45,935 nucleotides of DNA from Bacteroidota bacterium. Lineage in GTDB: Bacteria > Bacteroidota > Bacteroidia > Chitinophagales > Saprospiraceae. The position numbers and the translations under genes were made by a program. The stretch's first letter is position 1; the number at the start of each line of letters is the position of its first letter. This document shows, piece after piece, positions 6,022 to 37,920 of this stretch. The stretch spans positions 1 to 45,935 of the forward strand of contig JBCDKV010000001.1 in assembly GCA_038746215.1 (NCBI GenBank), in the 5' to 3' direction. Under the pieces are notes generated by a model. That model ran no database searches. It saw only the letters and a program-made list of their open reading frames with translations, and was not told the DNA's origin.

Positions 6022-6340
6022 GTATAGTTTTATTTTAACGAGCGCAAGTTGCGACTACGAATGCGCTACGACAACCTTCAGTAGCAGACAATCGTGTAAA
6101 ATAAGCGATTGTCCGTTCATTGTCTTGTTTTCAAGCACCTATGTCCATTTGATCGGACGGTATTGGAATCATCTCTTTTTATTGTTTTTTGTTGAAATGG
6201 AGGTTATGAACAGGATAAGAGCGATTTGCCCGAACTCGAAAGCGCAAATCGGAAAACTTGGATCGGTAAGCCCTAAGGATTGCCGAGCTGACTATCTAGC
6301 TAACTCAGTGAAAAGTCGAAAACACATCAGTTCTTGATGT

Positions 6341-6619
6341 GAATAACGGGTAAAATACTCCATTTTGTGGCAGTAACAGCTTTACTAAACTTTTGAAACT
6401 TAGTAGAGCGTTCGAGATCGCGCAACAAGTATGCCCAAAGGTTTTTTATGGACGGAAACACAAATTTCAACTTATTTTTTGGAGAAAAATAAGTTGAAAT
6501 TTGTGTTTCCGTCCGAAGAGAATTACTGAGCATACTTGTTGCTCAATTTACGGATTTTGATCTGAACTATATCTGAGTTAAATGTCAAGAAAAATGATAC
6601 CTGTACAGTCGTTATTCGC
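6341..6619 (+). repeat. Palindromic MITE-like element, family A, copy 1
   Basis: Terminal inverted GAATAACG / CGTTATTC and internal inverted GCAACAAGTATGC / GCATACTTGTTGC. There is a perfect 30-bp central hairpin 6450-6479 / 6485-6514. It ends 28 nt before the ABC ATPase start. Confidence 0.85.
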
Positions 6620-6646
6620 ATTCTTGCTACTAAAATACAAACAAAA

Positions 6647-7525
6647 ATGACACTCCGCATTCAAAATTTAACAAAGATATATCCCAATGGCGTAAAAGCC
6701 TTAGATCACCTCGATTTAGAGATCGAGAAGGGTATGTTTGGCTTGCTTGGTCCGAATGGTGCGGGCAAATCGAGCTTGATGCGTACCATCGCCACCTTGC
6801 AACGACCCGACCAAGGCAGCATTGTTTTTGAAGGTATTGAGGTACTAAAAGACGCGATGAGTTTACGAAAAGTTTTGGGCTATCTGCCTCAAGCATTTGG
6901 TGTCTATCCCAAAGTATCTGCGCTGCGTTTGCTCGACTATTTTGCCACTTTGAAAGGTATTGCTTCCAAAAAAGAACGAACGATCATCATCCAAAAAGTA
7001 TTGGAATTGACCAATCTTTACGATGTCCGAAAGAAAAGTGTCAGCAGCTATTCGGGCGGTATGAAGCAGCGTTTTGGAATCGCGCAATTACTCCTCAACA
7101 ATCCTCGCCTCATCATCGTCGATGAACCCACTTCAGGACTCGATCCCGCCGAACGCAACCGCTTTTTGAATGTGCTGCGCGCCGTCGGAGCGGAGAACAC
7201 GGTCATTTTTTCGACCCACATTGTAGAAGACGTGAAAGAGCTTTGTACCGATATGGCGATCATGAACAAAGGACGTATTCTGCGACACATTCCTCCAAAG
7301 GCTGCCACCGCCAAACTAGCAGGTAAGGTGTGGAAAAAGCAAATTGATACTGCTACTTTGGAGGTTTACGAAGCTCAGATGACTGTCCTTTCTTCCCATT
7401 TCGCACCAGATAATTCCAAAGTCATTCGAGTCTTTGCGGAGACTCAACCCGATGCTAGTTTTGAGAGGGCGACCCCTAATTTAGAGGATGTTTATTTTTT
7501 GGCACTTGGTATTAATAACACATAA
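6647..7525 (+). CDS. ABC transporter ATP-binding protein (ABC-2/CcmA-like)
   Basis: Walker A GPNGAGKSS, signature YSGGMKQR, Walker B LIIVDEPTSGLD, H-loop STHIVED. Confidence 0.95.
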   Translation: MTLRIQNLTKIYPNGVKALDHLDLEIEKGMFGLLGPNGAGKSSLMRTIATLQRPDQGSIVFEGIEVLKDAMSLRKVLGYLPQAFGVYPKVSALRLLDYFATLKGIASKKERTIIIQKVLELTNLYDVRKKSVSSYSGGMKQRFGIAQLLLNNPRLIIVDEPTSGLDPAERNRFLNVLRAVGAENTVIFSTHIVEDVKELCTDMAIMNKGRILRHIPPKAATAKLAGKVWKKQIDTATLEVYEAQMTVLSSHFAPDNSKVIRVFAETQPDASFERATPNLEDVYFLALGINNT

Positions 7526-7540
7526 GTATTGTTAAATAAA

Positions 7541-7890
7541 ACACATAGTCTTATAGCGGCGAAGCTGCAACACGTACTTTTTTTGAAACATATAGAAACA
7601 TAGAAACATAGAACACATAGAGTAGCGTTTTTTTGCAAAAAAACTATGTGTTTCTACTGTGGCTATGTGTTTTATAATCAATTATTTACGTGCTGCTTGT
7701 TCCAAAAGTCTTGTTTTTTGCGCAAACTTTTACAAGTATGTACTACATAGTAACACATAGAAGGCTCAGCTTACTAGTGACTATTTAAACAACATATAAT
7801 AATCTGGAAATGAGGTACATAGGTACACTAGGGGCACATAGTTTTCTCGTAGAAAAAATACTTTGCTATGTGTCTCTATGTGACTGTGTG
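7541..7890. repeat. Arrays of the heptamer (A/C)ACATAG and its complement CTATGTG arranged convergently around T7-GC-A7 palindromes
   Basis: Forward copies lie at about 7542, 7589-7620 (four tandem), 7744, 7754, 7815-7841 (three). Reverse copies lie at 7644, 7664, 7866, 7876, 7884. The palindrome TTTTTTTGCAAAAAAA is at 7628-7643. Confidence 0.8.
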
Positions 7891-7974
7891 TTTCCATAAA
7901 ATGTGTTCTATTTTGCAGCTTGCTGCTGTAAGTGCCTATGCGTTAAACAACACCTGTTTTCTAACATCAAAGCA

Positions 7975-10900
7975 ATGTTCATAAAAATATACCTGTACGA
8001 ACTAAATTATTGGCTTAAACGACCTGCGCTTTACCTCTACGCCTTTGCCTTCTTTTTCATTGCCTTACTGACTTTCGCAGGTTCGGCAGGTTTTTTCGAT
8101 CCGTCCCCTTCCAATCCACCGCCGAGTGAGTTCCTCAATGCCCCTTTTCAAATCAATTTCAGCCTCCAATTTTTCAATAAATTCTTTCTGTTTTTGCTAC
8201 CTGCCATCATAGGCGTGAGCGTACACCGAGATTTCAAAAGCAAGGTGTTTTCTATCTTGTACAGCTTTCCGATTCAAAAGCGAGACTACTTACTCGGCAA
8301 ATTTTTGAGTGCGTTTACGCTCGTTATTGCGATTACGCTTTTGGTCGGATTAGCACTTTTCATCGGAGAGCATTTACCCAATTTACACGCCCATAAAATA
8401 GGTGATTTTCGCTTTGCAGGCTATGCCCAAGCTTTCTTGGTTTATGTCCTACCCAATATGTTCGTGTATGGTATCGGTGTGTTTGCAGTCGTACTTTTAT
8501 TTAGAAATATCTATGCGGGCTTTGTAAGCGTTTTGCTGCTCTTTTTTCTGCAAATCATCACCGAAAATGCCTTTGCCAATCAGCCTTTACTCGTTGGTCT
8601 GCTTGATCCGTTTGCTCAAAACGCGGTAGCTTATGCGACTCAATTTTGGACATTAGAAGAAAAAAATGCGCAACTGATTCCCGTTTTGGGTGTGGTCTTG
8701 TACAATCGCTTGTTGTGGCTAGGATTGGCGATAATATTGGGCGGGCTGACCTATCGAAAGTTTGAACTGCATCAACATGCAATCACTACTTTTCAGATCA
8801 ATCGCAAAAGCAAAAAAGAAACAACAGCAGCCAATGCAACGCCAACAAACACCGAACTCACGAGCCTCCAACAAGACTTTTCTTTCCTCCAACAACTCAA
8901 AAACACTTGGCGACTTTCCAATTTTCATTTCTACGCTATCGTAAGAAATTGGATGTTTGGGGTGATTGTTTTGCTTGGATTGCTAGCCGTTATTTTTGCA
9001 CTAGCACGTGTCACCAATACAGGCGAAATGGTGCTACTACCTTTGACACGCATCATGCTCGCCATTCCTGCTTTTTTCTTTAGCACCATCATCATTTTGC
9101 TGACCTTCGTCTATTCGGGTATGTTGGTACACAAAGACCGCAACAGCGAAATGAACCAATTAGTAGATACTTGCCCGACGCCAAATTGGACGATTTTTTC
9201 TGCTCACCTTTTGGCGATCATCAAGATGCAAATCGTCCTATTACTCGTCATGTTGCTAGCGGGCATTGCGCTACAAATTTATAATGGCTATTATCACTTT
9301 GAACTTGGATTGTATTTGTTTCATTTGTTCGTTCTGACCTTTTTGGGGCTACTCATTTGGGCATTTGCTGCCTTCTTTGTGCATCATTTGTTGCCCAATC
9401 CTTATTTAGGTATTTTCCTCCTGATTTTGGCTTGGTTGGGCAGTACTGCCTTGCCCGAAATTGGGATTGAGACCAAGCTATTGGCGTTCAATGCTACCGA
9501 AGTCTTGCAGTATTCCGATTTGGATGGATATGGCAATCTACTCAAAGGTTTTTTCCTCGTCAAAAGCTATTGGTTGGTCTTTGGATTGATCTTACTTTTG
9601 GTGACTTATTTGCTGTACAAAAGAGGGCAACTATTCTCTTTCAAAGAACGCCTTTTCATAGCAAAAACGCGATTGCAAAGACCCGTACAAGCTACGTTTG
9701 CTACAATATTCCTTGCCTTTTTAACACTTGGATTTTTCATTGCCAAAGAAGAAGCGCAACTTCCCAATACGAAAGTAGAAAATGCTTATTTCCAACAATT
9801 TGAAGCAGATTTTGAGACTTTCGATGGGATTGTACAACCTAAGATCACGGACATTCAACTCGAAGTCAACCTTTTTCCTGCATCCAATCGCTTCGATGCT
9901 AAAGGCACTTACACGCTCGTCAATAAATCAAAGAAAGCTATTGATACGCTTCTACTAAAAACGGGATTTGACGAAACAACCACTTTTGAATTTGACCGAA
10001 ACCATCAGCGCATTGCCGAAGATGAATACGTCCATTTCTACGTGCTAAAATTGGCAGAACCACTGCAACCCAACGACAGCCTACGCTTTCAATTTTTGAT
10101 GCAAAGCGAGGAAAACAACCTCTTTCAGCGCAATTCGGACATCCTCAACAATGGAACGTTCCTGCGCTATGACGTCTTTCCTAGATTTGGCTATTTCTTA
10201 GCTGCTGATGATACGCATCCCGAAGACAGCTTAGTGGCTCGCTACAACGTTCAAAGTGAAGCTGCTCATCTAGTGAATTTTGAAACGACGATTAGCACTT
10301 CTGCCGATCAAATTGCCATTGCGCCAGGCTATTTGCAACAAGAATGGTTAGAGGACAATCGACGCTATTTTGAATATCGAACCGATCAACCCATCAAGTT
10401 TCTGTTTTGCTTGCTTTCGGGTGAATATACTGTTCAAAAAGAGACTTGGAAAGGCACTAATTTAGCCGTCTATTATCATCCCAATCATCAGCAAAATTTA
10501 GCCAATATGATCGCGGGCTTGAAAGCAGCAATCGACTACAACAGCCAATATTTCAGCGATTTTCAGCACCGAGAGGCACGCATTATTGAGTTTGCGCAAA
10601 GCGAAGGCACGCTCGCCACTACCATGGCAAATCTCATCCCCATGTCCGAAATTCGATTCATCGCCAACACCAATGTCAACAGCGGAAAAATCGACCTTGC
10701 GTTCTATGTCACCGCCCACGAATTGACGCATCAATGGTGGGGCAATCAAGTCTTACCGGCTCGTGCTGCGGGTGCGAGTATGCTCACCGAAAGCATTACC
10801 GAGTACATTACGCTACAAATTTACAAGCAAACCTACGGAGCAGAAAAGGCTTTGCAGTTCCTTAAAAATCAGCGATTTAGGTATTTGAGAGGGAGAAACA

Positions 10901-11475
10901 GAACGGCTCAAGCGGAAGTCCCACTATTTTTAGTCAAAACACCTCAGCAATACATCTCCTACGGAAAAGGCGCGATGGCATTCAACAGTTTAAGCCAATA
11001 TTGGAGTGAAGCCAAACTCAATAAAACGCTACAAGATTTTCTAAACGATTACCAATTTAAAGCTGCGCCTTATCCTACTTCCATCGACCTACTCAATCAC
11101 CTAAAAGCAGCAGTTCCCGATTCTTTGCAGTACTTAATTACCGACTATTTCGAGCAGATCACCTTCTACGATAATCGCATCGAAACTGCCGAAGTCGAAG
11201 CACTTCCCAATGGAACGTATGCGCTCACAATCGACCTTTCCATCCGCAAATATCGGCAAGACGATGCCGCCATCGATCTCGCCCTCAATGATTACATCGA
11301 AATCGGTATCTATGATGAAAAAGAAGCCTTACTTGAATTGAAAAGAGCAAAAGTAGCGCAAGCAGCTCACCAAATCACTTTACTACTTGATGCGCAACCA
11401 AGTCACCTTGTGCTTGACCCGAATTATTTGTTGATAGATAAGGAGGTGGAGGATAATGTTTTTGGGTTGGAGTGA
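7975..11475 (+). CDS. Fusion protein: ABC-2-type multi-TM permease domain + M1-family (aminopeptidase N-like) zinc metallopeptidase domain
   Basis: The N-terminal ~600 aa hold many hydrophobic helices. The C-terminal part has the gluzincin motif HELTHQWWGN plus a downstream E (LTESITEY). I prefer the start MFIKIYLYELNYWLKRP at 7975 over the track start 7903, which lies in the repeat region. Confidence 0.85.
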   Translation: MFIKIYLYELNYWLKRPALYLYAFAFFFIALLTFAGSAGFFDPSPSNPPPSEFLNAPFQINFSLQFFNKFFLFLLPAIIGVSVHRDFKSKVFSILYSFPIQKRDYLLGKFLSAFTLVIAITLLVGLALFIGEHLPNLHAHKIGDFRFAGYAQAFLVYVLPNMFVYGIGVFAVVLLFRNIYAGFVSVLLLFFLQIITENAFANQPLLVGLLDPFAQNAVAYATQFWTLEEKNAQLIPVLGVVLYNRLLWLGLAIILGGLTYRKFELHQHAITTFQINRKSKKETTAANATPTNTELTSLQQDFSFLQQLKNTWRLSNFHFYAIVRNWMFGVIVLLGLLAVIFALARVTNTGEMVLLPLTRIMLAIPAFFFSTIIILLTFVYSGMLVHKDRNSEMNQLVDTCPTPNWTIFSAHLLAIIKMQIVLLLVMLLAGIALQIYNGYYHFELGLYLFHLFVLTFLGLLIWAFAAFFVHHLLPNPYLGIFLLILAWLGSTALPEIGIETKLLAFNATEVLQYSDLDGYGNLLKGFFLVKSYWLVFGLILLLVTYLLYKRGQLFSFKERLFIAKTRLQRPVQATFATIFLAFLTLGFFIAKEEAQLPNTKVENAYFQQFEADFETFDGIVQPKITDIQLEVNLFPASNRFDAKGTYTLVNKSKKAIDTLLLKTGFDETTTFEFDRNHQRIAEDEYVHFYVLKLAEPLQPNDSLRFQFLMQSEENNLFQRNSDILNNGTFLRYDVFPRFGYFLAADDTHPEDSLVARYNVQSEAAHLVNFETTISTSADQIAIAPGYLQQEWLEDNRRYFEYRTDQPIKFLFCLLSGEYTVQKETWKGTNLAVYYHPNHQQNLANMIAGLKAAIDYNSQYFSDFQHREARIIEFAQSEGTLATTMANLIPMSEIRFIANTNVNSGKIDLAFYVTAHELTHQWWGNQVLPARAAGASMLTESITEYITLQIYKQTYGAEKALQFLKNQRFRYLRGRNRTAQAEVPLFLVKTPQQYISYGKGAMAFNSLSQYWSEAKLNKTLQDFLNDYQFKAAPYPTSIDLLNHLKAAVPDSLQYLITDYFEQITFYDNRIETAEVEALPNGTYALTIDLSIRKYRQDDAAIDLALNDYIEIGIYDEKEALLELKRAKVAQAAHQITLLLDAQPSHLVLDPNYLLIDKEVEDNVFGLE

Positions 11476-15586: not shown

Positions 15587-15625
15587 CAGCAGGTACTTGT
15601 AGTGCCTGCTGCTTTTGTATGTTTT
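15587..15625 (+). terminator. Rho-independent terminator candidate after the TonB receptor gene
   Basis: Stem CAGCAGGTAC (15587-15596) / GTGCCTGCTG (15602-15611), 9 of 10 bp paired, followed by CTTTTGTATGTTTTT. Confidence 0.6.
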
Positions 15626-15818
15626 TAAATTGGTATCTTATTTTCCCGTTTGGGACTACATAAAAATTACATTACTTACATTATTCAGTTTTTTAAAAAT
15701 TAAAATAGGAATAAATTTATTTGTTTCAGACTATGGAGGTTCGGCGTAAAAGCTACTCAAATTAACTCAGAAAAAACAAATTCTTTCAAAAGCATAGTAA
15801 TAAGACGTATATTTTCAA

Positions 15819-15826
15819 TATTTTTG
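15819..15826 (+). promoter_or_regulatory. Possible Bacteroidota -7 promoter element (TAnnTTTG) for the methyltransferase operon
   Basis: TATTTTTG lies 22 nt upstream of ATG 15848. This is a motif match only. Confidence 0.25.
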
Positions 15827-15847
15827 TGGTTAAACATTTTTGTTTAT

Positions 15848-16918
15848 ATGACAGAAAAAAGAGAATATTCAGTAAAAGTCATTGACTTGTTTTGTGGTAT
15901 TGGCGGACTGACACATGGTCTCCATAAAGAGGGTCTTAATGTCGTAGCTGGCTATGATATAGATGACTTATGCGAATATCCTTATGAAGCGAATAATGAA
16001 GCTAAGTTCTTTGCTAAGGATGTGGTAGAAATAAAAGGAGAAGAATTAAATGAACAATTTAGTGATTGTGACATAAAAGTACTCGTCGGATGCGCACCTT
16101 GTCAACCGTTTTCGACTTACTCTTTTAAATCCAAGGATAAGGCTAAATGGCGATTATTATATGAATATGGAAGGCTAATAGAAGAGACTCAGCCTGATAT
16201 TATCTCAATGGAAAATGTACCTCGTTTAGCAAAATTCACAAAAGAACCTGTTTTCCGAGATTTTTTAGATTTACTCAAAAAAAATGGCTACGAAAAACCA
16301 TTTTTTCGAATTGTCAATTGTGCTAATTATGGTGTTCCACAGAATCGTAAAAGACTTGTCCTTTTGGCATCTAAAAAAGGTGATATTACTTTAATCGACC
16401 CTACACATGAAGATGGTAATTACGAAACGGTGAAGAATGCTATTGGTAAACTTGAACCGTTGGAAAGTGGGGAAGAATCACAAAAAGATGTTTTGCATAA
16501 GGCAAGTCGGCTATCTGAACTCAATCTAAAGAGAATCAAACAATCAAAGCCTGGAGGTACTTGGAAAGATTGGGATGAAGAATTACGTTTGAAATGTCAC
16601 AAGAAAGCATCAGGTAATACTTACGTAAGTGTTTATGGACGCATGAGTTGGGATAAGCCCTCTCCAACAATTACTACACATTGTACAGGTATAGGTAATG
16701 GAAGATTTGGTCATCCTGAACAAGACAGAGCTATAACCCTTAGAGAAGCAGCCATTCTTCAGTCTTTTCCTAATAAATATAAGTTTGTTCCAAAAGGAGA
16801 AAGCTTTAATAAAAGGAGAATGTCCATTCACATAGGTAATTCTGTGCCTCCAAGATTGGGGCAAGCAATAGGAAGTAGTATAAAAAAGCACATTGAAGAA
16901 TATTACCCGAATTTTTAA
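15848..16918 (+). CDS. DNA (cytosine-5)-methyltransferase
   Basis: Canonical m5C motifs occur in order: I DLFCGIGG, IV GCAPCQPFS, VI SMENVPRL, VIII QNRKRLVLL, IX TLREAAILQSFP, X GNSVPP. The start MTEKREYSVKVIDLF was chosen over the track start 15824. Confidence 0.93.
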   Translation: MTEKREYSVKVIDLFCGIGGLTHGLHKEGLNVVAGYDIDDLCEYPYEANNEAKFFAKDVVEIKGEELNEQFSDCDIKVLVGCAPCQPFSTYSFKSKDKAKWRLLYEYGRLIEETQPDIISMENVPRLAKFTKEPVFRDFLDLLKKNGYEKPFFRIVNCANYGVPQNRKRLVLLASKKGDITLIDPTHEDGNYETVKNAIGKLEPLESGEESQKDVLHKASRLSELNLKRIKQSKPGGTWKDWDEELRLKCHKKASGNTYVSVYGRMSWDKPSPTITTHCTGIGNGRFGHPEQDRAITLREAAILQSFPNKYKFVPKGESFNKRRMSIHIGNSVPPRLGQAIGSSIKKHIEEYYPNF

Positions 16919-16921
16919 ACT

Positions 16922-17956
16922 ATGCCTACACAACAAGAAATACAAATAGCGGAAGCACAAATAGTTGAAGAAAAAGAGACTATCAGTTATGATACTAGAG
17001 AATACCCAGTTGAGGTAATAGTTGATAAATTCAATAATGATGAATTCACAATTCCCAAGTATCAACGTGAATTTGTTTGGCGAGAAGATAAACAATCCAA
17101 GTTTATAGAATCTATATTTTTAGATTTACCTGTTCCATTTTTATTTTTTGCTGATGAACCAGAAACAGGTAAACTAGAGATTGTTGATGGTTCTCAAAGA
17201 GTAAGAACTTTAGTTGAATTTCTAGGCGATCGACTCATTCTAAAGAATCTTGAAAGGCTAGATAAATCAAATGGATTAAAGTTTTCTGACTTTCCACTAC
17301 CTCGTCAAAGAAGATTTAAGAGAAAAACAATCCGTTCTATAGAATTAACAGAGAATGCCTCCATACAGGTTAAAAATGACTTATTTGGCAGGATAAATAC
17401 TGCTCCCTATGATTTAACTCCAATGGAAATCAGGAAGGGATTATTTGAAGGAGAATTTTATGATTTTATCAAAAATTGCTCTGAGGAAGAATTGTTCAAA
17501 GAACTTTGTCCTATAAGTGAGAAAAGAGAAAAAAGAGAAGAACGCCCTGAAATGGTCTTACGCTTTTTTGCTTACTCTGATAAGTATCAGTCTTTTGTAC
17601 ACAGAGTAGATGGGTTTATGGATAAATATATGGAAGACAAACATAAGGATGGATTTGATAGAGCAATTATGCAAGAAGAGTTTATGAGAATGTTGCGATT
17701 TGTAGAGCAACATTTTCCTAATGGGTTTAAAAAAGCTGCTACTCATAAATCGACTCCTAGAGTTCGCTTTGAGGCTATTTCGGTTGGAGTCAACTTGGCT
17801 CTACGCGAAAATGATGAATTGAATCCACCAAACATTCGAAATTGGCTCGAATCTGATGAGTTTAAGGAATTGATTACTTCTGATGGAGCTAATAGTAAAG
17901 CAAAGGTGATTGGAAGAATAGAATATGTAAGAGATAAACTCCTAGGAAATGATTGA
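16922..17956 (+). CDS. DUF262 (ParB/Srx-like NTPase domain of the GmrSD/SspE/BrxU class) protein lacking a DUF1524 nuclease domain
   Basis: N-terminal IPKYQREFVW and IVDGSQR(VRTL) match the DUF262 (I/L)PxFQRxxVW and DGQQR signatures. The product is 344 aa with no HNH/His-Me-like C-domain visible. It starts 3 nt after the methyltransferase stop. Confidence 0.8.
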   Translation: MPTQQEIQIAEAQIVEEKETISYDTREYPVEVIVDKFNNDEFTIPKYQREFVWREDKQSKFIESIFLDLPVPFLFFADEPETGKLEIVDGSQRVRTLVEFLGDRLILKNLERLDKSNGLKFSDFPLPRQRRFKRKTIRSIELTENASIQVKNDLFGRINTAPYDLTPMEIRKGLFEGEFYDFIKNCSEEELFKELCPISEKREKREERPEMVLRFFAYSDKYQSFVHRVDGFMDKYMEDKHKDGFDRAIMQEEFMRMLRFVEQHFPNGFKKAATHKSTPRVRFEAISVGVNLALRENDELNPPNIRNWLESDEFKELITSDGANSKAKVIGRIEYVRDKLLGND

Positions 17957-18644
17957 TGTAAAAAGAGACTTTGAAGAACGCGTAGAAGAGATAGAACTGT
18001 ATTTTGAGTTTATTGAAAATTTAGTTGAGAAAGATGCTAAACTGATATACCCTGATAAATCTGAAAAAGAGTTTGACGATGACTTGGTTAAAATATTCAA
18101 GGCCAATTCATTTCTTTTGCTATATAACCTATGCGAGTCTTGTATTCCTAATGCAGTTGAGGCAATTTATCTTAAAGTAAATACCGATGGAGTAAACTTT
18201 GATAAATTGCGCAGTGAATTTAAGATAGAAATTATAAAATTCTTAAAGTCAGCTAATAGTGCCAAGCCTAAAGATTTTGTTGGGAGGATAAACAATATAG
18301 CACAAGGAATAATCCTTGAGTGTTTTAAAAAGGAAAAATTATTCCCAGGAAATATTGATGCAGATAAGATAAGCGAATTAGCAAGGAAATATGGATTTTC
18401 TTCTTCTTGCACATTTGTTATTAATAGTGATGGAAGCCGCTCCAATATAAAACGGTCGAATCTTCGTACTGTTAGGAGAAAAAGAAACGAATTAGCGCAT
18501 GGAACTTACTCATTCAAGGAATGTGGAAAAGATTATACCATCCCCGATTTAATTGAGATTAAAAATCATGTTGTAGAGTATTTGCGCCAAATATTGAACA
18601 ATATAGAACAATACATCATCAACCAAGAGTACTTAGTTTCATAA
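17949..18644 (+). CDS. HEPN-domain protein (resembles the MAE_28990/MAE_18760-type HEPN nucleases that accompany DUF262 genes)
   Basis: All-helical 231-aa protein with an Rx4H motif in RRKRNELAHG (R-N-E-L-A-H, polar residue after R) near the C-terminal third. Its ATG overlaps the DUF262 stop by 8 nt (ATGATTGA). Confidence 0.65.
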   Translation: MIDVKRDFEERVEEIELYFEFIENLVEKDAKLIYPDKSEKEFDDDLVKIFKANSFLLLYNLCESCIPNAVEAIYLKVNTDGVNFDKLRSEFKIEIIKFLKSANSAKPKDFVGRINNIAQGIILECFKKEKLFPGNIDADKISELARKYGFSSSCTFVINSDGSRSNIKRSNLRTVRRKRNELAHGTYSFKECGKDYTIPDLIEIKNHVVEYLRQILNNIEQYIINQEYLVS

Positions 18645-18752
18645 TAAAAATAGTCATAATATTTTTCTTGTTAATTGATTTTCTCTTGCAACCATAGAGC
18701 GAGGCTAGAACAGAAAAACTATCACTGCTAAGCAAAAAACAGCAACTAAAAT

Positions 18753-19040
18753 ATGAACTCGTCCAACATACTTAATCTATCCAAGCTGCCTACAAATGTC
18801 AGGCAACAACTAATAGATTATTACCAATATTTAGTAGAAAAATATACTATTGCTGAACAAGCACAAAACCAAGATACGACCTTTTTGCAGCAATTTGTAA
18901 AACCTATGCGTAAGCACACTGATATTAATGCTCTAGTCAAAGAGCAAAACTACTCGGGAGTAGATAAAGCCAAAGTTCAAAATATTGTAAAGGCCATAAA
19001 CATTCCACAAAGTACGGACGAACTACTAATGATGCTATGA
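18753..19040 (+). CDS. Putative antitoxin with DUF2281-like N-terminus
   Basis: KLPTNVRQQLIDYYQYLVEKY resembles the DUF2281 'LPxxxQxxvxDFxxFL' helix. Its stop overlaps the PIN gene start by 4 nt. Confidence 0.5.
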   Translation: MNSSNILNLSKLPTNVRQQLIDYYQYLVEKYTIAEQAQNQDTTFLQQFVKPMRKHTDINALVKEQNYSGVDKAKVQNIVKAINIPQSTDELLMML

Positions 19041-19480
19041 GATACCTTTTAGATATAGATATTCTATTGCTGTACTTGCGGGAAGACTCAACAGCTAAAG
19101 AGATCGAAGATCAATACCACATCTTAGAAAAAGAACATCTTGCTTTGATTTTGATAGTAAGCAAAGGTGAATTAAAAGCTTTGGCATTAAAAAATAAGTG
19201 GGGAAATCGTCGTATTGCTAAATTGGAAGAGTTTCTAAATCAATTTTTTATCATTGATATTAATGCCGAAGATATTATTGATCGATATGCCGAAATTGAT
19301 GCTTACAGTCAAGGTAAGTTAGATCGTTTGGCAAGTAATTTCACGGCAAGAAATATGGGTAAAAATGATATGTGGATTGCTGCAACAGCTTCTATAACAG
19401 AAGCTTCGTTGATTACAACAGATAAAGATTTCCACCATCTTCACAAAACCTTCATTGACTTAATCTATGTGAAGCGATAG
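19037..19480 (+). CDS. vapC: PIN-domain ribonuclease toxin (VapC-like)
   Basis: Acidic PIN residues sit in the expected positions: LLDIDIL near the N-terminus, NDMWIAATA, and LITTDKDF near the C-terminus. It is translationally coupled to the upstream small ORF. Confidence 0.75.
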   Translation: MRYLLDIDILLLYLREDSTAKEIEDQYHILEKEHLALILIVSKGELKALALKNKWGNRRIAKLEEFLNQFFIIDINAEDIIDRYAEIDAYSQGKLDRLASNFTARNMGKNDMWIAATASITEASLITTDKDFHHLHKTFIDLIYVKR

Positions 19481-22333: not shown

Positions 22334-23395
22334 TTACCTACTTAATTCATAGACTTTGTACCAATAGAAAAAAGCTTCTGGATTTGATTTTTTGAGTTTG
22401 TTCAGGCGAGTGTAGAAGGGTTGTTCAATTATCCAATCTTTTATTCGCATGGGATTATCATACCTTCCAAAAGTTACTTTTCCTTGTTCGATCAATTTAG
22501 ATAGATAAGCTGCTTTAGCGGCATCAGCAATGGCTCGTTCAATATGATAGCTTTCTGAAAAAATGAAGGCTTTAACTTGAGAAATACCTTGTTGTAAGGC
22601 TTGAAAATTCGCAGTTCCTTCTTTTCCACGAGTTGAAATAGTCAGCGCAGTTTGGAATATGTCATCTAGGACAAATTTGTAATCTTGTTCTATTGCTCTG
22701 TAATGTAACTCTGTTTCAGTAAATTTTTTGAAAGTAGTTGTTGTGATCTCTAAATTGGTAATTTGATCGAAGATTGTACCAATATCAAACAGTTGTTTGA
22801 TGATTTCCATTGCACTACTTTGCCCCCTTTTCAGATAAGGAATGCCTGTTGTTTCAGGAGCAAATGCAGTGAGTTTATCTCCCAGTATATCTTCAAAGGA
22901 AGGTACAAGAACAGCTAATGTACGCCCTTCCTGCAATACAAAATTTGAGTCAATAGCAATTGATTTAAGCTGTTGATATTGTACTTTCTCAAATAAGATG
23001 TCCAATAAAATATTATCTTCTGATCTACCACTGTGATAAGTAGGAGCGTAGTAAAATTTGTAGTGTGCTTTTTCTAGTTTTGATTTTACCTTTCGTTCAT
23101 GTAGTTCTACTCTCGTGAATCCTTTTGAGGTAGCTAATGCTTCTAATTTAGGAGCTAATTGGACGTTTAAAGTCTGGATAATAATATCAACATCAATGGA
23201 TAGCCTTTTGGTAGAATCAAACATTAGCATCAAAGAAGTACCCCCTTTAAAAACAAAGTCTATGTTCATTTCCACTAAACCTTCTAGCAATAGTAACGCC
23301 CTGATTACTTTCTCTACCAGCGCAGGATCAGCTTTTTTATTTTTTGCAGCAATCGTCCTAATCCAAGCTGCCTTTAAAGACTTTTCACTTATCAT
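22334..23395 (-). CDS. abiEii: Nucleotidyltransferase AbiEii/AbiGii-family toxin (DUF1814)
   Basis: N-terminal FVFKGGTSLMLMF...RLSIDVDII matches the AbiEii FKGGTAL / S.DIDL nucleotidyltransferase core. It lies directly downstream of an AbiEi-like gene. Confidence 0.8.
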   Translation of the reverse strand: MISEKSLKAAWIRTIAAKNKKADPALVEKVIRALLLLEGLVEMNIDFVFKGGTSLMLMFDSTKRLSIDVDIIIQTLNVQLAPKLEALATSKGFTRVELHERKVKSKLEKAHYKFYYAPTYHSGRSEDNILLDILFEKVQYQQLKSIAIDSNFVLQEGRTLAVLVPSFEDILGDKLTAFAPETTGIPYLKRGQSSAMEIIKQLFDIGTIFDQITNLEITTTTFKKFTETELHYRAIEQDYKFVLDDIFQTALTISTRGKEGTANFQALQQGISQVKAFIFSESYHIERAIADAAKAAYLSKLIEQGKVTFGRYDNPMRIKDWIIEQPFYTRLNKLKKSNPEAFFYWYKVYELSR

Positions 23396-23413
23396 TATGG
23401 CATTTTTTTGAAT

Positions 23414-24124
23414 TTAGTGCCGATTTATAGCACTAAGTATTTCCTGAATTTTAGCTTTTTTCTTGCGCCTAGAAGCGTATCGAAATAGAGTACTCCGATT
23501 GACGGTGTACTTTTCAAGTGCTCGTTGAAAAATATTGATTAATTCGTAGCCCTGATAGAAATAAAATAAAGCTTTGTAAGAAACTAGGTCAACCAGTAGT
23601 TTTTCTATGCTAGTGCTAGGCAAATCTTTGATAAGTTGTGTAGGAGCTTCTGACACCAAATTTTGGATAATAATAGGGTTCGCTATGTCCAGAAGATAAT
23701 TTTCTACTGCATCTTTGGTGGGTTTTAGGTAAACATGCTTATGATTTGCTTTGAGATGTTGAAATACTGCCTCTAAACTATCTCTATCGGTCTCCACAAT
23801 AATAAAATGATTCTGAGCTTGATGAATGGATAGTTCTTGAATAATATTGGAGTTCCAGATACAGTAGTCAAGAAATGGAAAACCTTGCTTTAATTCTTTA
23901 CTGATCTTTAACTCTTTCCTTTTCGGCAGTGGTTTAAATGTTTTTGGAGCGCCCACTATGAACCTCCCTCTCCCGATTCTACTAATTTTTCCTGATTGCA
24001 CAAGTTGGTATATTCTCCAATTGACAGTACTCTTGGAAATCTCTTTTTCTTTTTCAGCATAGAAGTTGTAGATTTCTTTATTGGTAAAGAAATTGTGATC
24101 TTTAAAACGATGAGCTATGCTCAC
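23414..24124 (-). CDS. abiEi: AbiEi-like antitoxin/transcriptional regulator (winged HTH, DUF6577-like)
   Basis: The N-terminal wHTH STVNWRIYQLVQSGKISRIGRGRFIVG is typical of AbiEi-family antitoxins. It lies 18 nt upstream of AbiEii on the same strand. Confidence 0.7.
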   Translation of the reverse strand: MSIAHRFKDHNFFTNKEIYNFYAEKEKEISKSTVNWRIYQLVQSGKISRIGRGRFIVGAPKTFKPLPKRKELKISKELKQGFPFLDYCIWNSNIIQELSIHQAQNHFIIVETDRDSLEAVFQHLKANHKHVYLKPTKDAVENYLLDIANPIIIQNLVSEAPTQLIKDLPSTSIEKLLVDLVSYKALFYFYQGYELINIFQRALEKYTVNRSTLFRYASRRKKKAKIQEILSAINRH

Positions 24125-24490: not shown

Positions 24491-25135
24491 TTATTTACCA
24501 ATCAAGGTGAATTCAGATAATTTCAGCTCAAAATCTGGCAGAACATCTTCTCCTGAAAGTATTCCATCAAAATTCTTAATGACATCTACACTTTCATCTT
24601 CGCGATAGATGTAGGCTCTTTCTTTATAGGGATCAATCAACCAAGCCAAACGGACGCCATTGGTGATCCATTTATTTTGCATTTTCTTTTTTAGTTTTTT
24701 GAGTGAATCTGAAGCGGAGCGCAATTCCACCACAAAATCTGGAACAGCAGGCAAAAACCTTTTTTCGATGTCCTCTGGTGTTAAATTAGATAATCTTTCT
24801 GCACTGATCCAAGAAGCATCTGGACTTCTTGTAGAACCATCGGGCAGATCATACCCTATTTGAGAACTCCCCACTTGTCCTTGTCCATAGGCTTCACACC
24901 AATTTCCTACTCTACGAATAAGCAAACCTTCTCTAAAACCACTTCCACCAAATACTGGAGACATAATTGTTATTTTTCCTTTTTCATCGCGTTCCATCAG
25001 CAATTCTGGGTAAGTACCACAAAGGCTGATAAAAGCTGCTTTATCCAAACCTTTTACCACTAAGGTTCCACCCAATTGCTCAATTAATTGAATCATACCA
25101 ATATCTTGAACACCTTTCTCTAATACTGCTGTCAT
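24491..25135 (-). CDS. Uma2-family (DUF820, PD-(D/E)xK-like) endonuclease
   Basis: Contains ...SPDASWI... and PDFVVELRSASD, the conserved Uma2 D...(D/E)xK-like block. Confidence 0.75.
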   Translation of the reverse strand: MTAVLEKGVQDIGMIQLIEQLGGTLVVKGLDKAAFISLCGTYPELLMERDEKGKITIMSPVFGGSGFREGLLIRRVGNWCEAYGQGQVGSSQIGYDLPDGSTRSPDASWISAERLSNLTPEDIEKRFLPAVPDFVVELRSASDSLKKLKKKMQNKWITNGVRLAWLIDPYKERAYIYREDESVDVIKNFDGILSGEDVLPDFELKLSEFTLIGK

Positions 25136-37254: not shown

Positions 37255-37920
37255 CTAGACTGCTATTTGTACTTGATCTGATTCGTAAGGCATTTCCCAA
37301 GCAAAAATAAGGTCTGCTTTTGCTACACCTGCCTCTAGCAGCACGGCTTCTAAAGGGTAGTCTGTGTTATTTTTGTGTATCCAAATCTGATGATCTCTTA
37401 TTTCTAGTCGAAGTAGTAAATCATAGACATAGCGATTGTCGTGCCAACCCGAAGAAAACAAAGTATAATTTTGCTCTTCATCGTCTGTAATGACTTGTTT
37501 TTTGAGTGCAGGAGCATTAATAGACTTAGAACCTGCCATTCTATTCATCAGATTTTCAACTGCTTTTCGATAGTTTTTTTCTTTGACTTCATTTTTTGAA
37601 GTATTAGTTACTGCTACTTGTACCCAAGCCATATGCAAATCATCTGATGCTACACCTGCTTTCAGTAGTTGATCTTCCAGTGGATAGTCTGTATTATTTT
37701 CGAGTATTCGAACGTCCCCATCATTAGTCAATTCGATATGAAACAATAGATCGTGTATGTAATGTTCTTTGTGCCAACCAGCATTGAAGAGTAAAAAATT
37801 GTGCTTTGATTTGTCGACTTGTAGATATTTGCGTAAGCTTGGCTGATTGATCGTTTTAGAAGATGCAGGACGTGCTACTACCTCAGTAATAATTACTTTA
37901 TATTGATCTACTTTTTCCAT
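37255..37920 (-). CDS. xisI: Tandem double XisI-domain protein
   Basis: Two ~110-aa halves each carry the XisI pattern (..FNAGWHKEHYIHDLLFHIELTNDGDVRILENNTDYPLEDQLLKAGVASDDLHMAW and ..FSSGWHDNRYVYDLLLRLEIRDHQIWIHKNNTDYPLEAVLLEAGVAKADLIFAW). Confidence 0.75.
   Translation of the reverse strand: MEKVDQYKVIITEVVARPASSKTINQPSLRKYLQVDKSKHNFLLFNAGWHKEHYIHDLLFHIELTNDGDVRILENNTDYPLEDQLLKAGVASDDLHMAWVQVAVTNTSKNEVKEKNYRKAVENLMNRMAGSKSINAPALKKQVITDDEEQNYTLFSSGWHDNRYVYDLLLRLEIRDHQIWIHKNNTDYPLEAVLLEAGVAKADLIFAWEMPYESDQVQIAV

Follow-up and report, generated by a model that had tools for sequence, protein, structure and literature searches.

Organization of the locus

The system described here is a three-gene operon at positions 15848-18644 of contig JBCDKV010000001.1, which comes from a Bacteroidota bacterium of the family Saprospiraceae. 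The whole stretch of DNA that was analysed, 45,935 nt in length, is referred to as the window. All three genes lie on the + strand and encode a C5-methylcytosine (m5C) DNA methyltransferase (MTase), a DUF262 protein and a HEPN protein. They are designated g1, g2 and g3 and are given below as they appear in the list of open reading frames (ORFs).

15848-16918, + strand: g1, C5-cytosine methyltransferase of 356 amino acids (aa), ATG start, the frame being already open from TTG 15824
16922-17956, + strand: g2, DUF262 protein
17949-18644, + strand: g3, HEPN protein of 231 aa

The genes are closely packed. Read base by base, the stop codon of g1 (TAA, 16916-16918) is followed by a gap of 3 nt (act) and then by the ATG of g2 at 16922. 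The ATG of g3 at 17949 is located inside the end of g2, the stop codon of which (TGA) occupies positions 17954-17956. The 8 nt shared by the two genes, 17949-17956, read ATGATTGA, and g3 is presumed to be translationally coupled to g2 through this overlap. The arrangement of three co-directional genes with a 3-nt gap and an 8-nt overlap, as it was given in the preliminary description of this DNA, is borne out by the ORF list and by the junctions.

Two further features are found between the operon and the gene upstream of it.

15587-15611, + strand: terminator-like hairpin with an 11-bp stem followed by a T-run, from a consensus scan (pattern match only)
15612-15847, + strand: AT-rich intergenic stretch of about 240 nt 5' of g1, read from the sequence, presumed site of the promoter

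As a pattern match, the hairpin may terminate the upstream gene for a TonB-dependent receptor and would then mark the 5' boundary of a transcription unit belonging to the operon itself. A promoter is presumed to lie in the AT-rich stretch, where a TAnnTTTG box resembling the Bacteroidota -7 element occurs at 15819-15826, 5' of g1. The scan for sigma-70-like promoters gave fewer matches than in shuffled sequence, this consensus being uninformative for a Bacteroidota host. The G+C content is 0.32-0.36 over 15-19 kb and about 0.42 in the flanks, a dip that fits the expectation for acquired DNA. An imperfect (71%) direct repeat of 34 nt, at 15800-15833 and 18641-18674 with a spacing of 2841 nt, brackets the operon almost exactly. 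It could be a trace of the operon's insertion, or a coincidence in sequence of high A+T content.

The three encoded proteins

The g1 product is a full-length C5-cytosine methyltransferase by its matches to Pfam PF00145 (E = 3.6e-64), TIGR00675 (6.4e-44) and the PADLOC model MTase_II (2.1e-95). The motifs found in it are I (FCGIGG), IV (PCQ, containing the catalytic Cys), VI (ENV), VIII (QNRKR), IX and X (GNSVP). With all motifs present, g1 is predicted to be an active, sequence-specific m5C methyltransferase. Orthologues with 52-85% identity are linked to DUF262 and HEPN genes in other genomes.

In m5C enzymes the target-recognition domain is located between motifs VIII and IX. Among 39 MTases of the family the conservation of this segment equals or exceeds that of the catalytic core, with 76-90% identity over residues 261-300, which suggests one fixed methylation motif across the family. 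The search for this motif among 8000 MTase homologues gave no named relative with known specificity, and the relatives of g1 in the PDB, DNMT1, M.HaeIII and M.HhaI, are too distant for a specificity to be derived from them. The window itself is strongly depleted in GGCC, with 8 sites observed against 75 expected (observed/expected 0.11), and in CCGG, with 10 against 59 (0.17), and several palindromic 6-mers such as AGCGCT and GGTACC are missing from it. This depletion suggests strong past or present restriction pressure of the HaeIII or HpaII type in the host. It was considered as a signature of the g1 target and rejected: it is absent in many hosts of the three-gene system and present in a host without it, and because of this inconsistent pattern it cannot be assigned to g1.

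The g2 protein matches Pfam PF03235 (GmrSD_N/DUF262) with E = 2.5e-26, the match being limited to residues 34-175. It carries the conserved motifs I (YQREFVW), II (DGSQR, residues 89-93) and III (FGRIN). No DUF1524 or HNH domain was matched, and Pfam gave no match past residue 175. Over a much longer section of the chain g2 matches two PADLOC profiles: NsnA (1e-58, residues 17-338 on profile positions 40-377 of 385) and PD-T4-2_A (2.8e-38, residues 43-335 on profile positions 53-356 of 363). An AlphaFold2 (AF2) model built from 21 sequences has a mean confidence (pLDDT) of 80. Its Foldseek matches are BrxU, which is the best one (5e-4), CTP-bound ParB, KorB and sulfiredoxin (Srx), with no nuclease fold among them. 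The protein is thus modelled as a ParB/Srx-fold NTPase domain with an NsnA-type helical domain on its C-terminal side, without a nuclease. The name ParBDB for this kind of helical domain is taken from Li et al. 2025. The role of g2 is presumed to be that of a DNA sensor and NTP switch.

The g3 protein matches Pfam PF18737 (HEPN_MAE_28990) with E = 1.3e-29 and 104.4 bits against a cutoff of 26.8, over profile positions 6-211 of 211; a second match is to PF18735 (9.4e-8). Its catalytic motif is R179-N-E-L-A-H184, an RNxLAH sequence of the Rx4-6H type. Residues R179, N180 and H184 are invariant among the 20 homologues aligned, the most distant of which has 31% identity. The relatives of g3 include the founders of the MAE_28990 family from Microcystis aeruginosa, and the NCBI annotation pipeline PGAP labels the homologues 'MAE_28990/MAE_18760 family HEPN-like nuclease'. 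The AF2 model is all-helical (pLDDT 87.7). A sequence search of the PDB with g3 returned nothing relevant. HEPN proteins are RNases, and the role of g3 is presumed to be that of an RNase effector.

The family assignments made in the preliminary description therefore hold for all three genes: the canonical m5C methyltransferase motifs in g1, the DUF262 signatures without a C-terminal DUF1524/HNH domain in g2, and a helical g3 with an Rx4H motif of the HEPN kind. Of the profile searches proposed there, those with PF00145, PF03235 and the HEPN models of Pfam gave matches, while no NCBIfam model matches g2 or g3.

Conservation and mobility of the three-gene unit

A scan of species-representative genomes found 356 genomes with a relative of the system, and the best 80 loci were analysed. 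The DUF262 gene is located directly upstream of the HEPN gene in all 80 loci, and an MTase orthologous to g1 (52-69% identity, full length) adjoins the pair in 39 of them. The R, N and H residues of the HEPN motif are kept across all classes of loci.

Two arrangements of the methylase were found. In the first, as in the window, the order is MTase, DUF262, HEPN in one direction. Around HEPN homologues it occurs in a metagenome-assembled genome (MAG) of Saprospiraceae and in Bacteroidota-like metagenome contigs, and it was also found in Capnocytophaga, Sphingobacterium, Runella, Sulfurovum, Acidobacteria and Parabeggiatoa. There are more than 120 relatives of g2 with 57-68% identity. Four of their neighbourhoods were inspected, those of Capnocytophaga stomatis, a mobilisable element of Sphingobacterium and two metagenome contigs; all four have this order with overlaps of 4 nt, and every genomic setting is different. 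Approached from the side of g1, the orthologues in Sulfurovum and Runella sit in the same trio.

In the second arrangement the MTase is convergent. It is found in Microcystis and other cyanobacteria, in the Tn7 cargo of P. protegens, on a linear Klebsiella phage-plasmid, in Moraxella phage Mcat32 and in P2-like prophages of E. coli, the phage-plasmid, the Moraxella phage and the P2-like coliphages all carrying the full trio. In the founder locus of Microcystis the DUF262 and HEPN genes are followed by the convergent MTase, and all three genes of the window have orthologues there with 42-53% identity. In E. coli the trio is present in 7 of 5,426 complete genomes and shares 43-57% identity with the window, protein by protein. 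Its neighbours there are the P2 portal gene on one side and the replication-endonuclease gene on the other, a site which is a defence hotspot as defined by Vassallo et al. and Rousset et al. In E. coli 181.1 the trio occupies NZ_CP059907.1, 503417-506317, with the proteins WP_021560113.1, WP_227170932.1 and WP_001533788.1.

Altogether five phyla carry the trio: Bacteroidota, Cyanobacteriota, Acidobacteriota, Pseudomonadota and Campylobacterota. The recurrence of the arrangement in many unrelated genomes shows that the juxtaposition is not due to chance. An adjacency that is kept although the order has changed is typical of restriction-modification (R-M) partners. Purifying selection on each of the three genes is strong in the trio loci, with a ratio of nonsynonymous to synonymous substitution rates (dN/dS) of about 0.1; the median pairwise values are 0.12 for g1, 0.10 for g2 and 0.125 for g3, and since dS is near saturation the contrasts between such values are rough. 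The three genes form a functionally linked unit, which is almost certainly a defence module. The idea in the preliminary description of a linked defence unit that includes the methylase has gained from this survey, in which the pair was linked in all 80 loci and the linkage of the methylase was kept across phyla.

The partners of the methylase vary in some loci. In the Tn7 cargo of P. protegens a HATPase_c_3 gene and a Vsr gene are found between the HEPN gene and the MTase, and both partner sets flank one MTase (locus L009, 6875-10249). The presence of Vsr beside the MTase there fits an active m5C writer. In locus L098 (5001-8492) an MTase of the same orthogroup, 63% identical to g1, is paired with HATPase_c_3 and Vsr without DUF262 and HEPN; the HATPase_c_3 partner is a GHKL ATPase of about 650 aa resembling paraMORC. 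One methylase family thus appears to serve alternative 'reader' modules. In an Acidobacteria MAG (L013, 4819-5907) the MTase of the trio is only 46% identical to g1, compared with 52-69% elsewhere, while the DUF262 and HEPN proteins are typical. This is possibly a case of methylase replacement. Finally, in the record of Peduovirus P24B2 (L099, NC_049387.1, 29078-30125) a frameshift divides the g1-like MTase into an annotated 'DNA methyltransferase' of 234 aa and an ORF of 37 aa. The prophage counterpart in E. coli 181.1 (L103) is 100% identical and is annotated with an intact MTase of 348 aa, and the length difference of one base suggests a sequencing error or a mutation in the phage record.

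Loci without an adjacent methylase

The loci were grouped by a neighbor-joining tree of the DUF262 proteins. The window clusters with the loci that have an upstream co-directional MTase. A large cyanobacterial clade has the MTase in convergent orientation. In its sister clade, also cyanobacterial, no MTase adjoins the DUF262-HEPN pair, and the pair is flanked by housekeeping genes. Within the MTase-bearing clade the methylase has been lost at two loci, L034, where a fragment of the gene is left, and L088. Both have substitutions at otherwise conserved motif positions of DUF262 (YQRH/QMIW and DGAQR).

In many Microcoleus species the DUF262 protein is a uniform N-terminal stub of 177 aa, without the ParBDB domain. 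It is found beside an intact HEPN gene, with no methylase nearby, in the following loci.

L037, L045, L050, L053, L056, L060, L062, L063, L065, L077 and L080, around locus positions 6340-7690: Microcoleus stub loci

The dN/dS values there are 0.34 for the stub and 0.20 for the HEPN gene, in which the catalytic motif is present. Rather than having simply decayed, the stub may have been kept as a minimal variant.

Relation to known systems

It is important to compare the trio with systems already described. The MAE_28990 HEPN family was recorded in association with a ParB-superfamily protein and a DNA methylase by Anantharaman et al. 2013 (PMC3710099, Table 1), in a description based on comparative genomics alone. 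The window has the same components: a MAE_28990 HEPN protein (PF18737), an adjoining ParB-superfamily gene (DUF262) and an adjoining DNA methylase. The MTase is upstream and co-directional in the window but convergent and downstream in the Microcystis locus; nothing structural differs.

The DUF262-HEPN core has a counterpart in PD-T4-2 ('DUF262, HEPN') of E. coli ECOR65, which is a two-gene system of 1.5 kb without a methylase, cloned as about 1.8 kb, and blocks T4 both in K-12 and in the native strain (Vassallo et al. 2022). The comparison with this system and with PD-lambda-5 was made through PADLOC profiles. In both PD-T4-2 and the window a DUF262 protein without DUF1524 is followed by a small HEPN protein. 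Both second components carry HEPN annotation of the PF18735 type, but the match of g3 to PD-T4-2_B is weak (E = 0.015) and covers only residues 169-223, the catalytic helix, and PD-T4-2_B is smaller, with a profile of 168 positions compared with the 231 aa of g3. In addition, PD-T4-2 works without a methylase, while the pair in the window lies in one operon with an m5C MTase.

The system PD-lambda-5 ('ParB/HEPN, methyltransferase') has been validated as well; it is borne by a prophage, gives broad anti-phage protection and was interpreted as a compacted prophage form of 'RM+Abi', R-M with abortive infection (Abi) (Vassallo et al. 2022). It shares with the window a ParB-superfamily domain, a HEPN-like region and a DNA methyltransferase. 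However, it has its ParBc domain and the weak HEPN region in a single fusion protein, where the window has separate g2 and g3, and its component PD-lambda-5B is an N6-adenine methyltransferase (MethyltransfD12), where g1 is a C5-cytosine enzyme (PF00145). Neither g2 nor g3 is matched by the PADLOC models of PD-lambda-5 at E <= 0.1. PD-lambda-5 is an analogue of the trio and not a homologous family.

The match of g2 to NsnA drew attention to Menshen (NsnABC; Millman 2022; Li et al. 2025). The g2 protein is NsnA-like over its full length, with ParB-DUF262 and ParBDB domains. In Menshen the genes downstream are those of the NsnB ATPase and the NsnC nuclease (inPIN), while in the window they are HEPN and then VapB/VapC-like genes, with a methylase in addition. 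Membership in Menshen was rejected, as no match to NsnB or NsnC occurs in the window.

The trio was regarded as a candidate uncharacterised system in the preliminary description, and this cannot be maintained. The locus is a further copy of a known module. Its gene association was described computationally in 2013, and validation of the core and of the nearest analogue followed in 2022. Moreover, in E. coli and Klebsiella the products of all three genes already carry names given by PGAP.

The DUF262 domain is the NTPase and modification sensor of GmrSD, BrxU and SspE, in which DUF1524 performs the cleavage. The g2 protein has the same NTPase domain with the QRxxxW, DGxQR and FxxxN motifs; however, it is without the DUF1524 His-Me nuclease of those enzymes, and the presumed effector is a separate HEPN protein. 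This agrees with the proposal of the preliminary description that a separately encoded HEPN protein takes the effector place of DUF1524. The further claim that the trio follows a logic opposite to that of GmrSD was overstated. SspE is already a DUF262 protein coupled to a self-modification module (SspABCD), and it arrests growth without that module; the mark of its partner is phosphorothioate, whereas that of the trio would be m5C.

In comparison with classical type II R-M systems the window has an MTase but no adjoining gene with a known restriction endonuclease (REase) fold, g2 being a ParB/Srx-fold protein and g3 a HEPN protein. In a two-pronged interpretation the DUF262 protein would itself be the DNA endonuclease of an R-M pair with the m5C methylase, and the HEPN protein would be a back-up resembling PrrC, kept inactive by the R-M proteins and set free when the phage neutralises them. 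It is the published reading of this gene association, where HEPN RNases linked to R-M were proposed to be PrrC-like suicide effectors of a second line (Anantharaman et al. 2013), and also that of PD-lambda-5. The PADLOC Type II REase model PDLC03418 matches the N-terminal domain of g2 (8.4e-10), from which it follows that DUF262 proteins are already among the REase models derived from REBASE, and HEPN domains are fused or paired with restriction subunits, never with methylases. However, DUF262 is the NTPase or sensor in every characterised case, the domain that cleaves is absent in g2 and the g2 model has no nuclease fold. PD-T4-2 and the pairs of the MTase-less clade would, in addition, be unguarded endonucleases. 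The two-pronged interpretation is considered unlikely.

Proposed mechanism

The domain identities, the conserved linkage, the conserved target-recognition segment of the methylase, the purifying selection, the defence context and the precedents above speak for the following proposed mechanism. The m5C methyltransferase would write a fixed sequence mark on the host chromosome. The DUF262 protein, with its NTPase domain and a DNA-binding domain of the ParBDB type, would act as the DNA sensor and as a nucleotide-driven switch. The mark would tell the sensor that the DNA is self, and unmarked incoming DNA would license the nuclease activity of the HEPN protein. This effector of the MAE_28990 family, most probably a metal-independent RNase, would on activation stop translation and abort the infection. 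The DUF262-HEPN pair would then be a core of the PD-T4-2 type that is able to work alone and has been coupled to a methylase in this lineage.

We somewhat favor this general interpretation, a self-marking methylase coupled to a PD-T4-2-type sensor-effector core with m5C shielding self DNA. Its more specific form, in which an unmethylated copy of one fixed motif induces NTP hydrolysis by DUF262/ParBDB and this in turn switches on the HEPN RNase, is put forward only tentatively, at less than even confidence. That the trio acts against phages in this host, that it targets RNA, that NTP drives the switch and that the outcome is abortive are all proposed in this conditional sense, and the direction in which methylation would gate the sensor is proposed with the most caution. 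The context of the operon is favorable to a defence role, as the E. coli copies lie in the P2 hotspot and VapBC and AbiE genes are also found in the window.

Several observations weigh against the self-marking interpretation. What speaks most strongly against plain R-M logic is the viable clade without the MTase, taken together with PD-T4-2. This clade is monophyletic; its DUF262-HEPN pairs are full-length, and in them motifs I-III and also the HEPN motif are intact. The dN/dS of its pairs, about 0.21-0.23, indicates genes that are constrained, although about twofold relaxed compared with the trio loci. The possibility that these loci are dead relics was rejected on the basis of this value of about 0.2 and of the intact motifs. 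The retention of the pair in the sister clade implies that the methylase is not strictly required in cis. The DUF262-HEPN pair alone is also carried by IncF plasmids of E. coli and Salmonella. These plasmid pairs, the MTase-less clade and the activity of PD-T4-2 in K-12 together indicate that the sensor does not universally need methylation against self-toxicity. The self-marking which the preliminary description had read from the presence of the methylase is weakened, as an obligatory feature, by the same MTase-less clade under constraint and by the methylase-free PD-T4-2 in K-12.

Other points of this kind concern the individual components. The palindrome-depletion analysis was inconsistent among host genomes and yielded no motif for g1. 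The Foldseek search of the PDB with the g3 model gave generic helical bundles only, the best with E = 0.04, and because there is no significant neighbour in the PDB the HEPN assignment rests on the Pfam profile and the motif. The literature searched contains no mechanism for PD-T4-2, PD-lambda-5 or the m5C-DUF262-HEPN trio, and no experimental data on this exact family. Finally, BrxU, the best fold match of g2, cuts m5C-modified DNA in vitro, so a DUF262 reader could prefer modified DNA.

In another reading the DUF262 protein binds the m5C sites of its own host, and this binding licenses or positions the complex; the mark would then be a positive signal required for defence and would not simply shield self DNA. 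This would resemble SspE, a DUF262 protein which depends on and senses the phosphorothioate mark of self, and BrxU acts on m5C DNA. On the other hand, such a mark is dispensable for PD-T4-2 and for the MTase-less clade, and we regard licensing by m5C as very improbable.

In a further reading there are two independent systems that travel together, an autonomous DUF262-HEPN pair and a mechanistically unrelated orphan m5C methylase. The orphan might protect the mobile element from restriction in the recipient, or it might act as an addiction or epigenetic gene. The existence of selectively constrained pairs without an MTase in cis agrees with such independence, as do the activity of PD-T4-2 alone and the finding of the MTase orthogroup with HATPase_c_3 and Vsr in place of DUF262 and HEPN. 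However, one and the same MTase orthogroup adjoins the pair across five phyla and in two gene orders, and this, with the translational-coupling overlaps of 4 nt between MTase and DUF262 and the equal constraint on the three genes of the trio loci, is the strongest argument against mere co-travel. The twofold relaxation in the MTase-less pairs points in the same direction. Among the classifiable DUF262 ORFs, which are not phylogenetically independent, the protein is shortened in 19 of 38 MTase-less loci, compared with 2-3 of 38 loci with a full MTase. Independent co-travel is judged to be rather improbable, though not to the degree of m5C licensing.

If the methylase does gate a HEPN RNase through the ParB-fold NTPase, the trio would represent a distinct R-M-like class in which the mark distinguishing self from non-self is placed on DNA while the restriction arm is an RNase. 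In the more specific form given above it would also be a natural intermediate linking R-M, Abi systems and the type IV enzymes. Sister clades have lost the methylase repeatedly, and this would then illustrate the way from an R-M-type system to a sensor that works independently of modification, like that of PD-T4-2. The recurrence of DUF262 sensors beside modification modules, as in Ssp, BREX and the trio, would be explained as well. The trios in P2 prophages of E. coli, with the natural methylase-less relatives as controls, make the question of gating directly testable. The practical outcome is a firm annotation of the operon as a known mobile defence module, in a Bacteroidota segment that also holds VapBC and AbiE.

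Neighboring genes in the window

The genes with a possible connection to defence that are found downstream of the trio are the following.

18753-19480, + strand: VapB-like antitoxin (95 aa) overlapping a PIN/VapC toxin (147 aa), directly downstream of the trio
22334-24124, - strand: AbiEii nucleotidyltransferase toxin (PADLOC AbiEii, 2.7e-130) and, directly upstream on the same strand, a DUF6577 protein (PF20217, 1.8e-67)
24491-25135, - strand: Uma2-family protein with a putative restriction-endonuclease fold (PF05685, 1e-27), about 6 kb downstream of the trio

The first two genes look like a type II toxin-antitoxin pair by their profile matches, which are NF050009 (1.4e-4) and weakly DUF2281 for the VapB-like protein and PF01850 (1.6e-7) for the PIN/VapC protein. 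The DUF6577 protein is presumably the AbiEi-like partner of AbiEii. The trio, VapBC and AbiE form a small defence cluster, interrupted by a pair of ABC-2/DUF3526 permease genes. The Uma2 gene is the only gene with an REase fold nearby, and it is not conserved beside the trio elsewhere. The earlier statement that no such fold is evident in the vicinity has to be corrected for this putative case, and it stands for the conserved module.

Two other sections of the window contain unusual proteins. At 7903-11475 (+ strand) a protein of 1190 aa has an ABC-2-type membrane domain and, at its C-terminus, an M1 peptidase domain, an unusual transporter-peptidase fusion, and an ABC ATPase is encoded upstream of it at 6647-7525 (+ strand). 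At 37255-37920 (- strand) a protein of 220 aa contains two XisI domains (PF08869 in two stretches, 9.8e-38). XisI is best known from the heterocyst excision elements of cyanobacteria, and its presence in a Bacteroidota-like contig is an odd find.

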